NCBI GenBank assembly: GCA_045614425.1
Contig: JAZLCX010000033.1
Span: 1 to 43,034, forward strand
Length of the DNA stretch: 43,034 nucleotides
Reading direction: 5' to 3'
Source: Eubacteriales bacterium
GTDB taxonomy: Bacteria; Bacillota; Clostridia; Oscillospirales; CAG-272
In this document: piece after piece, positions 442 through 36,882 of the stretch
How the letters are laid out: each line of letters begins with the position of its first letter
How positions within the stretch are numbered: position 1 is the first letter of the stretch
Made by a program: the position numbers and the translations under genes
Notes under the pieces: generated by a model
What the model saw: the letters and a program-made list of their open reading frames with translations, nothing else
Database searches by the model: none
Told to the model about the DNA's origin: nothing

Positions 442-687
442 AACTTCCCCGCCTTTCGTGTTCTTGGGTTAATTATACCACAAAACCTCTTACTTTTCAA
501 CCTTTATAATAAAACTGCTTTTCGCCCAAGCGAAAAGCTACCTTACCTCTTCACTATTCACTATTACTTATTACTTCCAAAAAAATCCGTGCGCGCGTAA
601 TTAGTGAAAAGTGAAGATGTGAACAGCATTTACAAGTAAATGCGGAAAAAGTAAAAAAATCCGCACACTCGCGTGTACGGAATTTTT

Positions 688-5636: not shown

Positions 5637-7181
5637 ATGCTTTCGAGAATTTATTCATCGGGTATAGTTGGAGTAGAAGGCTTTGAGGTGGTCGTGGAAT
5701 GCAGCGCTTGGGACAGAATCCCGCGCTTTGACCTTGTCGGATTGCCCGACGCCTCCGTAAAGGAAGCCAAAAACCGAGTTCAGTCTGCCTGTGAGAACAC
5801 GGGATTAAAGTTTCCCGCACTTGATATAATGGTGAACCTTGCTCCCGCAGATATCAAGAAGGAGGGCTCGGCATTTGATCTTGCCATAATGGCGGCAATA
5901 CTTCAATGCGACGGAATAATACCGCACGCCTACGACTTTTCGGATAAATGCCTTATCGGTGAGCTGTCTCTTTCGGGTGAGGTGCGCGCTGTCGGAGGAG
6001 TTCTTCCCATGACGGTTTCTGCGCGGGATATGGGCAGAAAAGAAATATTCGTTCCCTATGAAAATGCTCCCGAGGCGGCAGTCGTTGACGGAATAACCGT
6101 TTACGGCGTCAAAAATTTAAGAGAGCTCGTTGATCACATAAAGGGGGTCAAGGAGATAACCCCCGAGATATATGACCGCACGGGCTTTAAGCGCGAGAGC
6201 TTTGTTGCCGGAATGGATTTTTCCGAGGTAAGAGGACAGTATAAGGCAAAGAGAGCGCTTGAGGTAGCCGCAGCCGGCGGACACAACGTGCTTATGATAG
6301 GCCCGCCCGGTGCAGGAAAATCAATGCTCGCGAAAAGACTTCCGTCAATACTGCCGGATATGTCCTTTGACGAGGCTGTTGAAACCACGAAGATACACTC
6401 TGTTGCCGGAACACTTAAAGGAAATCTCATAACCGAGCGTCCCTTCCGCTCGCCTCATCATACGGTCAGCCGAATAGGTATAGTGGGCGGCGGCACGTCG
6501 CCAAAGCCGGGCGAGATATCAATGGCGCATAACGGAGTTCTTTTCCTCGACGAGCTTCCCGAATTTCCGAAATCGGTCAGCGAATCGCTCCGTCAGCCGC
6601 TTGAGGACGGAGTTGTAACCGTTACCCGCGCGGTAGCGACCGTAAAATTCCCATCGTCGTTTATGCTCGTTTGCGCAATGAATCCCTGCAAGTGCGGTTA
6701 TTTCGGCGATCCCAATAAGCAGTGTACCTGTACCCCTACCGCAACCAAGAAATATCTTGAGCGCGTGAGCGGTCCGCTTCTTGACAGAATAGATATAGAA
6801 ATAGAGCTTCCCTCGGTTTCGTACGATGAAATATCCGGAAAAACCGAGCCCGGTGAATCCTCAGCAAAAATAAGAGAGCGCGTGAACCGCGCAAGAGCCT
6901 TTGCCGACAAGCGACTTGAAAGCGGCGGTGACAAGCGCGGCACACTTAACGCAAATATGACGGTTGACCTTCTCCATAAGTATTGCATACCGAACGAGGA
7001 GGCGTCCGAGCTTATGCGTCAGGCATTTGACAGTCTCGGACTTTCTGCCCGCGGACACGACAGAGTGCTTCGCGTTGCGAGGACCATTGCCGACCTCGAC
7101 GAGTCCCCTGAAATACGCGCCGAGCATATAGCGGAGGCCATAATGTACCGCTCGCTTGACAGAAAATATTGGAAGCGGTAA
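5637..7181 (+). CDS. comM: YifB/ComM family Mg-chelatase-like AAA+ ATPase
   Basis: VGLPD..VKEA, NLAPAD.KKEG, GPPGAGKS, RPFRSPHH, LFLDELPEF, AMNPCKCG, SGPLLDRID, LSARG. Confidence 0.93.
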   Translation: MLSRIYSSGIVGVEGFEVVVECSAWDRIPRFDLVGLPDASVKEAKNRVQSACENTGLKFPALDIMVNLAPADIKKEGSAFDLAIMAAILQCDGIIPHAYDFSDKCLIGELSLSGEVRAVGGVLPMTVSARDMGRKEIFVPYENAPEAAVVDGITVYGVKNLRELVDHIKGVKEITPEIYDRTGFKRESFVAGMDFSEVRGQYKAKRALEVAAAGGHNVLMIGPPGAGKSMLAKRLPSILPDMSFDEAVETTKIHSVAGTLKGNLITERPFRSPHHTVSRIGIVGGGTSPKPGEISMAHNGVLFLDELPEFPKSVSESLRQPLEDGVVTVTRAVATVKFPSSFMLVCAMNPCKCGYFGDPNKQCTCTPTATKKYLERVSGPLLDRIDIEIELPSVSYDEISGKTEPGESSAKIRERVNRARAFADKRLESGGDKRGTLNANMTVDLLHKYCIPNEEASELMRQAFDSLGLSARGHDRVLRVARTIADLDESPEIRAEHIAEAIMYRSLDRKYWKR

Positions 7182-16872: not shown

Positions 16873-16968
16873 GCTTCCCAAAACGATTTCAATTATTAAT
16901 ATATTTTTTCTATATCTATTGACAAACCTATTTTATATGTGTTAAAATGAAATGTCCATAAGGATAAA

Positions 16969-17185
16969 GATAGAGGCGCACTGCACGAAGATTACCGTAC
17001 CTTGTTTGGCTGCCAAAGCCGTACGGGAAAGGCGTGGGTGCCGAAGTGAGTACCGTGGCGGGTGCTTGGCTGGCAGTTCGGAGAATATCCGCCCTGTTGT
17101 CGTGTAATGCGGAGTGCTATCAAAAATAAACTGTACGTGTGCGTATGCTTTTTTTGAGATGGCTTTTCGTGTGGCTGTCTCTTTT
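16969..17185 (+). promoter_or_regulatory. Lysine riboswitch (aptamer 16969-17121) with terminator (17156-17185)
   Basis: P1 GATAG/CTATC, conserved AGAGGCGC, GAAAGG, GCCGAA and GGAGTGCT; GAGATGGC/GCTGTCTC-TTTT hairpin; upstream of dapA-dapB-ddh-lysA. Confidence 0.9.
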
Positions 17186-34570: not shown

Positions 34571-34900
34571 GTGAGAAAATTTTTAACAAGGTATACCGTA
34601 CCGATAAGCGTTATCGGAGTATTTTTCGTAGCATTCTTCTTTTTTAATTTTACCTGCCCGATATATTTTATTTTCGATGTACCTTGTCCTGCTTGCGGAG
34701 TAACGCGAGCTATGCTCTCTTTGCTTCGTCTTGATTTTTCGGCGTATCTTGAATACAATGCTATGGCAATCCCTCTTGTTATGGCAACGCTGCTTATGCT
34801 TTTGAGAAAGAGAGTAAAGCACCGCCTCTTGCTTCACGGATTTGTAACGATTGTCCTCGTACTTAATTCTGTGTACTACATATTCAGATTGCTGCAATAA
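34571..34900 (+). CDS. DUF2752 family membrane protein
   Basis: CP......PCPACGVTRA...L..DF..Y..YN motif with three TM segments; start uncertain (GTG 34571 or TTG 34562). Confidence 0.85.
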   Translation: MRKFLTRYTVPISVIGVFFVAFFFFNFTCPIYFIFDVPCPACGVTRAMLSLLRLDFSAYLEYNAMAIPLVMATLLMLLRKRVKHRLLLHGFVTIVLVLNSVYYIFRLLQ

Positions 34901-34938
34901 AGTACTGCATATTCAGATTGCCGAATAAATTAATAATG

Positions 34939-34972
34939 AAAGTCCGGCGTACGTTTTGTGCGCCGGACTTTT
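34939..34972 (+). terminator. Intrinsic terminator after DUF2752 gene
   Basis: AAAGTCCGGCG/CGCCGGACTTT stem. Confidence 0.8.
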
Positions 34973-35039
34973 GTACGCTTTGTGATTTAAGCTGTATTTT
35001 ACTCTTGACATAGGTATTCTCCTTTGTTATAATAATATC

Positions 35040-35149
35040 GCCACTTGACTCTTAACGAGTTAGCTACGGTATGTTCGCGTAGCCGGAGAAGAAGCTATGG
35101 CTTTTAGGCGAGACTTCTCACACACCACTCCTTCGGGAGTGGTTTTTTT
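35040..35149 (+). ncRNA. Putative structured small RNA, cassette 1 (type A)
   Basis: TTGACA 35005-35010, 17 nt, TG-n-TATAAT 35028-35033; three hairpins then ACCACTCC-TTCG-GGAGTGGT-T run terminator; no RBS/ORF. Confidence 0.7.
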
Positions 35150-35295
35150 ATTTTCTCCGCTTTCGCCGAGAACGCAGCTGAAAAAGAAAAAAATGCGAAA
35201 AAGTATCTTTCGCATTTAATTACAGAATATACGCTTTGTGATTTAAGCTGTATTTTACACTTGACATTTTCTTTCTCCTATGTTATAATTGTTAA

Positions 35296-35400
35296 GACGA
35301 CTGTAAGCGTCGGGAACCGACTGAGTTGAGGTTTACCTGCGAACTCACAAAAGGCGATAGACGACCGTCTTTTTTTAAATGCTCTTCGGAGCATTTTTTT
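35296..35400 (+). ncRNA. Putative structured small RNA, cassette 2 (type B)
   Basis: TTGACA 35261-35266, 17 nt, TG-n-TATAAT 35284-35289; hairpins GTCGG/CCGAC and TGAGTT/AACTCA; terminator AAATGCTC-TTCG-GAGCATTT-T run. Confidence 0.65.
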
Positions 35401-35544
35401 ATTTTCTCCGCTTTCGCCGAGAACGCAGCTGAAAAGAAAAAATGCGGAAAAGTATCTTTCGCATTTAATTACAGAATATACGCTTTGTGATTTAAACTAT
35501 AATTTACACTTGACATTTAAAAACTCCTATGCTATAATATTTTT

Positions 35545-35648
35545 GCCATTGGCTCTAGGGCTAGCTACGGTATGTTCGCGTAGACAGAGAAGACGTGTTG
35601 GCTTAAAAGCGAGACTTCTCAAAGACCACTCTTCCGAGAGTGGTTTTC
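35545..35648 (+). ncRNA. Putative structured small RNA, cassette 3 (type A homolog)
   Basis: TTGACA 35510-35515, 17 nt, TG-n-TATAAT 35533-35538; homologous to cassette 1 with compensatory changes; terminator ACCACTCT-TCCG-AGAGTGGT-T run. Confidence 0.7.
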
Positions 35649-35764
35649 TTTTTTTATTTTCTCCGCTTTCGTCGGGAACGCAGCTGAAAAAGAAAAAATG
35701 CGAAAAAGTATCTTTCGCACTTAATTATAAAATATACAGAGATGAGATTTTTTGACTGAAAACA

Positions 35765-35793
35765 TTGACAAAACACTATATTTAGTTTATAAT
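35765..35793 (+). promoter_or_regulatory. pheST promoter
   Basis: TTGACA 35765-35770, 17 nt, TATAAT 35788-35793. Confidence 0.8.
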
Positions 35794-35859
35794 AAATAAG
35801 TTATTATTTGACTTTTGCCGCGGCAGGCTTGCCGGCGGCACGGAAAGGACCTTCAAACG

Positions 35860-36882
35860 ATGGAAGAAATGATTTTACAGCTTAAAGCACGTTTTGAAAG
35901 CGAACTTGCTCTTGCATCCGATGCAGCTACTCTTGAGTCGTTAAGAGTTAATTTTCTCGGCAAAAAGGGCGCAGTAGCGGAGCTTATGAAGGGGCTTCGC
36001 GACGCACAGGATAAAAAGGCGGCAGGACAGCTTATCAACACGTTTAAGACTGAGGTTGAAGAGGCAATCAGCAAGGCTGAGGAGACTCTTCGCACAGCGG
36101 CTATCGAGGCTGAAATAAGGGGAGCTAAAAAGTATAACCCCACCCTTGCCTTTGAGCGTGAGCTCGGCTCGTATCACCCCATAACACTCGCAACCCGTGA
36201 GGTTGAGGCAGTTTTTGAAAGCATGGGCTTTACGGTTGAGAATTATTTTGAAATAGTTGACGACTACAAGTGCTTTGAGGCGCTTAATATTCCGAAGCAT
36301 CACCCCGCACGCGATATGCAGGATACCTATTACCTCGATAACGGTCAGCTTCTTAAGACGCATACCTCGGCGGCGCAGAATGCCATAATGAAGAAGTACG
36401 GAGCACCCCTTCGTGCGATATTCCCCGGACGCTGCTTCAGAAACGAATCCACCGATGCGTGTCACGAGAACACCTTCTTCCAGATGGAAGGTATGATGAT
36501 TGACGAAAACATATCCATATCTAACCTTATCTACTTTATGAAGACCATGCTTTCCGAGGTCTTCAAGCGCGACGTTAAGGTAAGACTTCGCCCCGGATTT
36601 TTCCCGTTTGTCGAGCCGGGATTCGAGCTTGATATAAACTGCGAGATTTGCGGCGGCGACGGATGCCCCTCTTGTAAAAACTCGGGCTGGCTTGAGCTTT
36701 GTCCCTGCGGAATGATACACCCCAACGTACTTCGTGAGGGCGGAATCGACACCGAGAAGTATTCGGGCTTTGCGTTCGGTCTCGGTCTCACCCGTCTTGC
36801 GATGATGAGATACGGAGTAAAGGATATCCGCGATTTCAACAGCGGAAACCTCAAGGCTCTTTCGCAGTTTAAGTCTATATAA
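35860..36882 (+). CDS. pheS: Phenylalanine-tRNA ligase alpha subunit
   Basis: HPARDMQDT, LLKTHTS, FFQMEG, FPFVEP, GFAFGLG; ATG 35860 after GGAAAGGA. Confidence 0.97.
   Translation: MEEMILQLKARFESELALASDAATLESLRVNFLGKKGAVAELMKGLRDAQDKKAAGQLINTFKTEVEEAISKAEETLRTAAIEAEIRGAKKYNPTLAFERELGSYHPITLATREVEAVFESMGFTVENYFEIVDDYKCFEALNIPKHHPARDMQDTYYLDNGQLLKTHTSAAQNAIMKKYGAPLRAIFPGRCFRNESTDACHENTFFQMEGMMIDENISISNLIYFMKTMLSEVFKRDVKVRLRPGFFPFVEPGFELDINCEICGGDGCPSCKNSGWLELCPCGMIHPNVLREGGIDTEKYSGFAFGLGLTRLAMMRYGVKDIRDFNSGNLKALSQFKSI

Follow-up and report, generated by a model that had tools for sequence, protein, structure and literature searches.

A predicted small RNA family with a covarying pseudoknot, encoded head-to-head with a basic protein gene on Rep-bearing elements of gut Clostridia, and its orphan array ahead of pheS

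What three head-to-tail cassettes represent among the genes of a clostridial chromosome is the question raised by positions 34974-35760 of the window, that is, the whole stretch of 43,034 nt analyzed here. Each cassette, of ~250 nt, is made of a promoter, an RNA body of ~105 nt and an intrinsic terminator, and the promoters, at 35005, 35261 and 35510, all have the form TTGACA-17-TATAAT, with 12/12 consensus matches and a TG preceding the -10 box. The flanking genes are housekeeping genes: rsmD-like, coaD-like, TM2 and DUF2752 genes stand upstream of the array, and pheS/pheT downstream (PheS domains are found in the ORF 35815-36882); in relatives, the TM2 and DUF2752 genes are kept together, but pheS is not within 1.5 kb. 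The original prediction, made on cassettes 1 and 3, was of an RNA motif with covariation and a doubly pseudoknotted fold, as in protein-binding antitoxin RNAs or small ribozymes, and not of an antisense RNA. The RNAs of cassettes 1 and 3 are hereafter called type A, and that of cassette 2 type B; the features of the array are as follows.

35005..35033, plus strand: promoter of cassette 1, 12/12 consensus matches, TG before the -10 box
35040..35150, plus strand: type A sRNA copy 1 (cassette 1), 108.6 bits with model R1
35191..35217, minus strand: terminator-like hairpin in spacer 1, directly after a stub ORF
35261..35289, plus strand: promoter of cassette 2, 12/12 consensus matches
35296..35402, plus strand: type B sRNA (cassette 2), 122.4 bits with model R2
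35510..35538, plus strand: promoter of cassette 3, 12/12 consensus matches
35545..35655, plus strand: type A sRNA copy 2 (cassette 3), 107.4 bits with model R1
35765..35793, plus strand: fourth consensus promoter, outside the cassettes at the right edge of the array, which drives pheS

The primary features attributed to cassettes 1 and 3 are all present in the sequence. Both RNAs start with GCCA, at 35040 and 35545, 7 nt after a 12/12 promoter; the first hairpin reads TTGACTC/GAGTTAG in cassette 1, where cassette 3 has TTGGCT/GGCTAG; positions 35061-35082 and 35562-35583 hold the same 22-nt block; and the 34-nt domains 35086-35119 and 35587-35620, closed by GAGAAG/CTTCTC, have TGGCTT and GCGAGA in common. 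The two bodies are 83% identical over 94 nt, within the ~250-nt repeat units, and the terminators, which had been said to covary, differ in one compensated pair. The minus-strand hairpin of spacer 1 is repeated at 35440-35466 and 35696-35722 and has no homologue in related loci, and a BLAST comparison of the cassette spacers with all related loci gave only short chance matches and one 86-nt match, at 72% identity, in G012.

Several other features were recorded in the window. The last ~20 nt of the DUF2752 gene (34873-34892) are duplicated 29 nt further on, at 34902-34921, with 95% identity, immediately ahead of the cassette array, and this duplication may be the scar of an integration or recombination event. 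The pheS leader (35794-35861) is short, with a single GC-rich hairpin and no Rfam T-box match. A lysine riboswitch aptamer is located at 16963-17127 on the plus strand (72.3 bits), and a tRNA gene at 1043-1114 on the minus strand (64.6 bits).

Folding of the single sequences gives modest MFE z-scores (-3.1 for cassette 1 and -1.7 for cassette 3), and the fold was examined in 53 type A copies, aligned with a 6-nt leader and counted for the pairs of a specified structure. Over the whole fold, 90.2% of the 1471 cells pair, with double changes in 22 of the 28 pairs; none of 500 shuffles equals the observed percentage paired, the double-change pairs and cells, or the covariation score, and sliding the partners along the alignment leaves 33-45% paired. 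The proposal of a covarying RNA motif is therefore borne out in these homologues, since the three hairpins, a helix that extends the third of them inward (P4b) and the first pseudoknot covary: P3 pairs in 100% of cells, P4 in 99.4% and P4b in 98.6%, the latter with double changes in three of its four pairs, and P2 in 73%, with a recurrent A-A mismatch. Both window copies possess every helix of the model, at the positions given below (all on the plus strand).

35040-35043 (GCCA) with 35098-35101 (UGGC): pseudoknot PK1, copy 1
35045-35051 with 35057-35063: P2, copy 1
35064-35068 with 35078-35082: P3, copy 1, with the conserved bulged G at 35077
35086-35091 with 35114-35119: P4, copy 1
35094-35096 with 35107-35109: P4b, copy 1
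A35092 opposite A35111-A35113: conserved internal loop, copy 1
35124-35143, then a T run: terminator, copy 1
35545-35548 with 35599-35602: pseudoknot PK1, copy 2
35549-35554 with 35559-35564: P2, copy 2
35565-35569 with 35579-35583: P3, copy 2
35587-35592 with 35615-35620: P4, copy 2
35594-35596 with 35609-35611: P4b, copy 2
35622-35647: terminator, copy 2

The order of elements is thus 5' pseudoknot strand, P2, P3, P4/P4b and terminator, and the pseudoknot joins the first 4-6 transcribed nucleotides, as predicted from the promoter, to the apical loop of P4. This first pseudoknot, proposed as GCCA pairing with the UGGC of the P4 loop, holds up well among the homologues, where 84.9% of its cells pair and four of its five pairs show double changes. 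In an anchored search, duplexes of at least 4 contiguous pairs were found in 52 of the 53 sequences, 30 of them distinct, and compensated versions include GACCA/UGGUC, GGUCA/UGACC, GUAGCA/UGCUAC, GUGGCA/UGCCAC, UGUGCUCA/UGAGCACA and GGUGC/GCACC; in the window copies the duplex has 4 bp only. The second pseudoknot, TTCGC with GCGAG, does not stand: 35.8% of its cells pair, 143 of 500 shuffles do as well, and the hairpin-2 loop is unconserved. The GCG of GCGAGA pairs instead with bases that had been called variable, just 5' of UGGC, and forms P4b, and the C and G of TTCGC are part of the inner P3 and its conserved bulged G. Of the doubly pseudoknotted fold, one contact is therefore retained and the other is at the level of the shuffles, so the type A fold has one pseudoknot and not two; the comparison of two copies had predicted one tertiary contact correctly and another wrongly.

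The nucleotides that are invariant and unpaired are the A of J2/3, the bulged G in P3, the C of J3/4 and the A/AGA internal loop in P4. In the alignment, G-U cells outnumber A-C cells (93 vs 10), so that the fold is selected on the strand read from the promoter and not on the strand that is sense for the partner protein described below. A Rep nick site in P3 (CTACG) was also considered and ruled out, because the P3 stem covaries freely.

No Rfam 15 family reaches its gathering score in the region 34900-35900, nor is there any match to a family of ribozymes, riboswitches or other RNAs in the array at E up to 10 that could name it, the best plus-strand match at E<=10 being rnk_pseudo, with 22.8 bits vs a gathering score of 55. 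A search of the literature, including structured-RNA surveys, found no description of the type A RNA, and three conserved 11-mers are absent from the eight supplementary files covered of the gut structured-RNA survey PMC8040213 (Genome Biol 2021). Like the candidate structured RNAs of metagenome surveys and Rfam 15, type A is an intergenic gut motif supported by covariation; it differs in being absent from Rfam 15. On these grounds, type A is a previously undescribed family of sRNAs of ~105 nt, predicted to be transcribed independently. A search for RNA sequencing runs in which the locus is present found none and listed DNA contigs only, at word shares of 0.26 or less.

Related cassettes were found by BLAST in 8 of 60 relatives, all of the same genus. 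The covariance model R1, built from eight type A copies, matches 10 of the 151 genomes of the genus, the window's own counted; one of these (G075, 27 bits) proved on inspection to be only a terminator and was rejected, which leaves nine real genomes, and at the level of the order there is a match in one of 150 other genomes. The copies occupy different genomic places, and, given the few matches, the distribution is sporadic. This pattern weighs against the reading of type A as an ordinary chromosomal sRNA that acts in trans, through short-seed pairing to host mRNAs, with the copies on mobile elements being secondary. The window copies, placed among rsmD, coaD, TM2, DUF2752 and pheST, do look expressed and selected, as such an sRNA would; nevertheless, the presence in 9 of 151 genomes of the genus and 1 of 150 others, the different locations, the stubs of a partner gene carried by the copies, and the lack of a long conserved single-stranded seed, since most conserved bases are paired, make this reading improbable.

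The RNA of cassette 2 belongs to a separate sequence family and shares the topology of type A: its 5' end (GACGACUGU) is base-paired to the loop of the hairpin that immediately precedes the terminator. In nine type B homologues, 94.4% of the cells pair, and four of the nine pseudoknot pairs show double changes. Model R2 matches 8 of the 151 genomes of the genus, the window's own counted.

What type A is attached to is seen outside the window. In two genomes of the genus (G019 and G063), the RNA stands head-to-head with an ORF of 101-104 aa starting MSSVNY(S/D)LK, and the two overlap closely: the ATG of the partner is the reverse complement of the CAT in the -35 box TTGACAT of the RNA promoter, the box TTGACA itself corresponds to codons 1-2 of the protein (ATG TCA), and the Shine-Dalgarno sequence of the partner (AGGAG) sits in the spacer of the RNA promoter. 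The partner belongs to a genuine and conserved protein family: a search of a large protein collection gave 279 clusters at E<=0.01, with a nearly invariant N-terminus, and every cluster with a source name is called hypothetical. At 50% identity the family has 118 representatives, many of them short N-terminal fragments; among the representatives P0129-P0237, many are fragments of 37-90 aa that match the N-terminus only. Such fragments fit a frequent truncation of the gene, and contig ends could also produce them. P0188 (2378 aa), also among the hits of the representative search, was set aside as spurious, being a repetitive surface protein of the MBG/YDG kind.

From the alignment of the partner protein, 45 loci were fetched from species-representative genomes, all of them, by their record titles, gut or rumen MAGs of Clostridia type. 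The 44 loci that have upstream DNA all carry a type A RNA gene on the strand opposite to the partner (E<=1.1e-8), a linkage of 44/44 that, measured on loci chosen by the protein, is uninformative on how often the RNA stands alone. The distance from the RNA 5' end to the partner ATG is 27-54 nt in these 44 loci, and in 43 of them the -35 box is at most 12 nt from the ATG. Together with the R1 matches across the genus, this linkage indicates that the resemblance between the cassettes exceeds chance. It also bears on the possibility that type A is a small self-cleaving ribozyme, or else a free-standing RNA that senses a ligand, and stands next to a protein gene only incidentally. The pseudoknotted, junction-rich architecture with few invariant nucleotides would suit such an RNA, as would the association with mobile elements, which is seen for many small ribozymes; against this, neither a ribozyme nor a riboswitch of Rfam is matched, even with E relaxed to 10, the RNA has its own terminator and nothing downstream to control, and a head-to-head linkage in 44 of 44 loci is not incidental, so that this is the least probable of the readings weighed here.

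The partner of type A is a basic, lysine-rich and beta-rich protein of 96-110 aa, with a mostly beta AlphaFold model of pLDDT 84.5. Searches for relatives of known family or fold gave nothing in Pfam at E<=1, nothing by Foldseek of the model against PDB and BFVD at E<=0.001, no usable match in the ESM Atlas, and nothing by tblastn against phage and plasmid collections; there is a weak match to phrog_5875 (E 0.015), a single locus on one contig in IMG/VR, and a best VIA (wide) Z-score of 2.5 for the model. With no recognisable family or fold, nothing indicates toxicity or RNA binding for this protein. The partner of type B, intact in G010, G084 and G175, is a distant paralogue: the N-terminus is MSSVNYSLKHKG... 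for the protein beside type A RNA and MS(N/S)(V/P)YQPK... for the one beside type B. Within the genus, an intact partner was detected in two of the eight type B genomes, with a profile that is weak for the type B paralogue.

The genes next to the pair define the genetic context of the family. In 14 of the 45 loci there is, upstream on the strand of the partner, a gene for a Rep protein with Rep_OBD (PF01719; HUH origin-binding) and SF3 helicase (PF00910) domains, and on contigs of 6.4-9.1 kb the order is rep, sRNA on the opposite strand, basic protein, and genes for membrane or secreted proteins, among them a BspA-type LRR protein and a GDSL lipase. Three modules, two of type A and one of type B, are present on one 6.8-kb contig. 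The type A family belongs to uncharacterised, plasmid-like mobile elements of gut Clostridia that encode Rep. On one 6.4-kb Rep contig (L086), a further small unit at 6000-6113, minus strand, consists of an 11/12 promoter, ~50 nt with a nested hairpin and a terminator, standing before another rightward gene; it may represent a third RNA type of the same system.

The proximity to rep raises the reading of type A as a replication element, for instance one that supplies a primer RNA or marks the lagging-strand origin. The sRNA genes are often just 3' of rep; the protein genes listed for the small Rep-bearing contigs L086 and L087, and for L084 in its 3'-ward part, run one way and the sRNA genes the other, the further small unit of L086 also being in the opposite orientation; and the template strand of the sRNA is the sense strand of the element genes, the one expected to be displaced in rolling-circle replication. 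This reading is nevertheless very improbable, as the promoters are of the ordinary duplex-type consensus and not folded single-strand promoters, the bias of G-U over A-C cells shows that the RNA itself is selected, the elements carry several modules each, and intact orphans lie in the housekeeping region bounded by the DUF2752 gene and pheS, with no rep nearby.

The window copies are such orphans. Beside each cassette only the beginning of a partner gene is left, on the minus strand:

34970..35011, minus strand: partner stub by cassette 1 (MSRVKYSLNHKAY...), tblastn match of residues 1-14 at 35011-34970, included in the ORF 34913..35011
35223..35267, minus strand: partner stub by cassette 2 (MSSVKYSLNHKAYIL, then a stop; 15 codons), tblastn match of residues 1-15
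35472..35516, minus strand: partner stub by cassette 3 (MSSVNYSLNHKAYIL, then a stop), profile match at positions 1-13 and tblastn match

With the partner genes cut to stubs of 14-15 residues, the sRNAs of the window are orphan copies. The source genome (G000) is a 1.57-Mb MAG of 148 contigs, 85% complete, in which the RNA is found at this locus only, and no full-length partner protein is present in that assembly. The orphan state is the majority in the genus: the partner occurs in only two (G019 and G063) of the nine real type A genomes, profile searches of the whole genomes of G007, G028, G129, G152 and G161 (73-95% complete) gave no partner protein, and N-terminal stubs of ~17-37 residues remain in G006, G012 and G161, adjoining the RNA in the first two. 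The window orphans are 11-17% diverged, yet they keep 12/12 promoters and compensated stems, from which it is argued that they are still under selection. Their structure is kept although this 85%-complete genome offers neither a cis target nor a partner, which counts against a role tied to the partner gene; the orphans may have a function of their own. They can be either relics, the protein gene being the first to decay, or domesticated, working in trans on elements that arrive from outside.

Orphans in other genomes show further arrangements. In G007 (contig C46; L013, ~530-640, minus strand), two tandem orphan type A copies follow another short promoter-hairpin-terminator unit of a sequence different from type A, which shows that the window is not alone in having an orphan array. 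In several genomes of the genus, the gene next after an orphan A or B RNA has a promoter of its own:

L024 599-1444, minus strand: gene after orphan RNA
L015 1167-1916, plus strand: gene after orphan RNA
L012 1736-1960, plus strand: gene after orphan RNA
L027 1635-1847, plus strand: gene after orphan RNA

One type of gene in this position encodes a membrane protein of ~70 aa, and another a protein of 250-280 aa that has a Cys-rich motif at the N-terminus and weakly matches, in PHROG, a family of Holliday-junction resolvases (E 3e-5).

Regarding function, the strict pairing with the gene of a small basic protein makes a role as antidote or regulator plausible, and the type A sRNA is proposed here as a negative regulator or antidote of its partner gene, a reading of the gene arrangement to which a probability of about 0.5 may be given. 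The fold, its strand and the invariable head-to-head placement, in which promoter and start codon overlap on a Rep-bearing element, are shown; how the pair works is inferred. The geometry of the genes equally predicts a cis-antisense relation, which the original prediction had excluded. On the protein strand, no sigma-70-like site lies within 400 nt upstream in 25 of the 44 loci, and the recurrent promoter-like sites, in ~11 loci, end 15-20 nt from the ATG, leaving no room for a leader; as no promoter of its own is consistent across the 44 loci within those 400 nt, the partner gene would have to be read from upstream. In that case the sRNA would be a countertranscript: any mRNA entering from upstream, e.g., from rep, would have a leader complementary to it, and the predicted transcripts would overlap with any partner leader longer than ~30 nt. 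Strong leftward transcription would start within the translation-initiation region of the partner, and the strong sRNA promoter would then be an obstacle exactly at the translation start. The sRNA may additionally bind the partner protein, and the pairing of its 5' end probably also shields it from 5'-dependent decay. That the RNA has repeatedly been retained where the protein gene was lost is in keeping with a function akin to an antidote or to immunity.

A pseudoknot and invariant junction nucleotides exceed the need of a plain antisense RNA and speak against that mode of action; judged from the alignment, they suggest either a stabilising and kissing architecture or a protein-binding surface. 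The second possibility leads to the main alternative, in which the RNA binds the basic protein, as a type III-like antitoxin or as the subunit of an RNP, and pairing with the mRNA is irrelevant. The compact fold with its unpaired A/AGA loop, bulged G and junction A and C, the correspondence of two RNA types with two protein paralogues, the confident model of a lysine-rich, beta-rich partner, and the independent and repeated truncation of the protein with the RNA kept, which is the expected decay of a toxin and its antidote, are all consistent with binding. On the other side, there are no tandem short repeats, the gene order is unlike the type III arrangement of an upstream RNA on the same strand, no nuclease or toxin family or fold was found for the partner, and two or three modules on one element are unusual for addiction modules, so protein binding in place of pairing is a tentative explanation, less favored than negative regulation of the partner gene.

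The comparison with known systems shows how these features are combined. In type III systems, the antitoxin RNA consists of tandem repeats of ~30-40 nt (~36 nt in ToxI), cut into units by the toxin, the RNA gene precedes the toxin gene, both on one strand and with a terminator between them, and the partner is an endoribonuclease of the ToxN/AbiQ type. Type A resembles ToxI in being pseudoknotted, through its 5' end and the P4 loop, and tied to one protein gene on mobile DNA, and the frequent loss of the protein gene while the RNA stays was also counted as a likeness; it differs in having, in place of short tandem repeats, ~250-nt cassettes with their own promoter and terminator, in being divergent from its partner, on the opposite strand in 44/44 loci, and in that the partner is not a recognisable ToxN-type RNase. 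In type I systems, the toxin is a small hydrophobic peptide or a protein of the SymE family, and the sRNA is antisense to the toxin mRNA; in the SymR/SymE pair, the sRNA promoter lies inside the 5' end of the gene for a basic protein of ~100 aa and reads in the opposite direction. The position of the type A promoter, embedded at the 5' end of a gene for a basic protein of similar size (~100 aa) and reading oppositely, is the same, whereas the partner, lysine-rich, beta-rich, of 96-110 aa and with no Pfam match, is neither kind of type I toxin and has no match to the SymE/AbrB family (Pfam E<=1) or fold, and the type A RNA, unlike SymR, is strongly structured and belongs to a pair found on a mobile element, with several modules per element.

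Countertranscripts are the other group to be considered. The P22 sar RNA, the pMV158 RNAII and the pT181 RNAI are countertranscripts with the promoter in the start region of the controlled gene, and the ctRNA/RNAI families of rolling-circle plasmids are antisense to the leader of the rep mRNA, 5' of rep. Type A shares with sar, RNAII and RNAI a short, terminator-ended and predicted constitutive transcript, the position opposite the very translation start of a gene of a mobile element, on the other strand, and a strong promoter facing incoming transcription. The differences are that, where rep is present, type A is 3' of it, before another gene, and is not antisense to the rep leader, with no Rfam match; that its predicted 5' end is ~12 nt short of the Shine-Dalgarno sequence; that it has a covarying pseudoknot and invariant junction nucleotides; and that free-standing orphans persist in chromosomes. 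PMC4485353 deals with pMV158 RNAII. In summary, sRNAs tied to a gene of a mobile element are a known kind, and what is new here is the fold, together with the partner protein and the arrays of orphans.

For the biology of these bacteria, type A is a new class of bacterial RNA with unusually clear covariation and a pseudoknot that uses what is predicted to be the very 5' end of the transcript, and it links a protein family with no known fold to small Rep elements of uncultured gut Clostridia that are not contained in phage and plasmid collections. A bolder view, that the head-to-head pair is a new RNA-protein module and that orphan arrays such as A-B-A are a heritable, RNA-based repertoire of immunity or antidotes, is doubtful at present; if true, orphan arrays of differing specificities would silence or neutralise incoming elements of matching type without CRISPR. 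The overlap of the -35 box with the start codon, together with an RNA that outlives its protein gene, provides a directly testable hypothesis of an antidote or immunity function.
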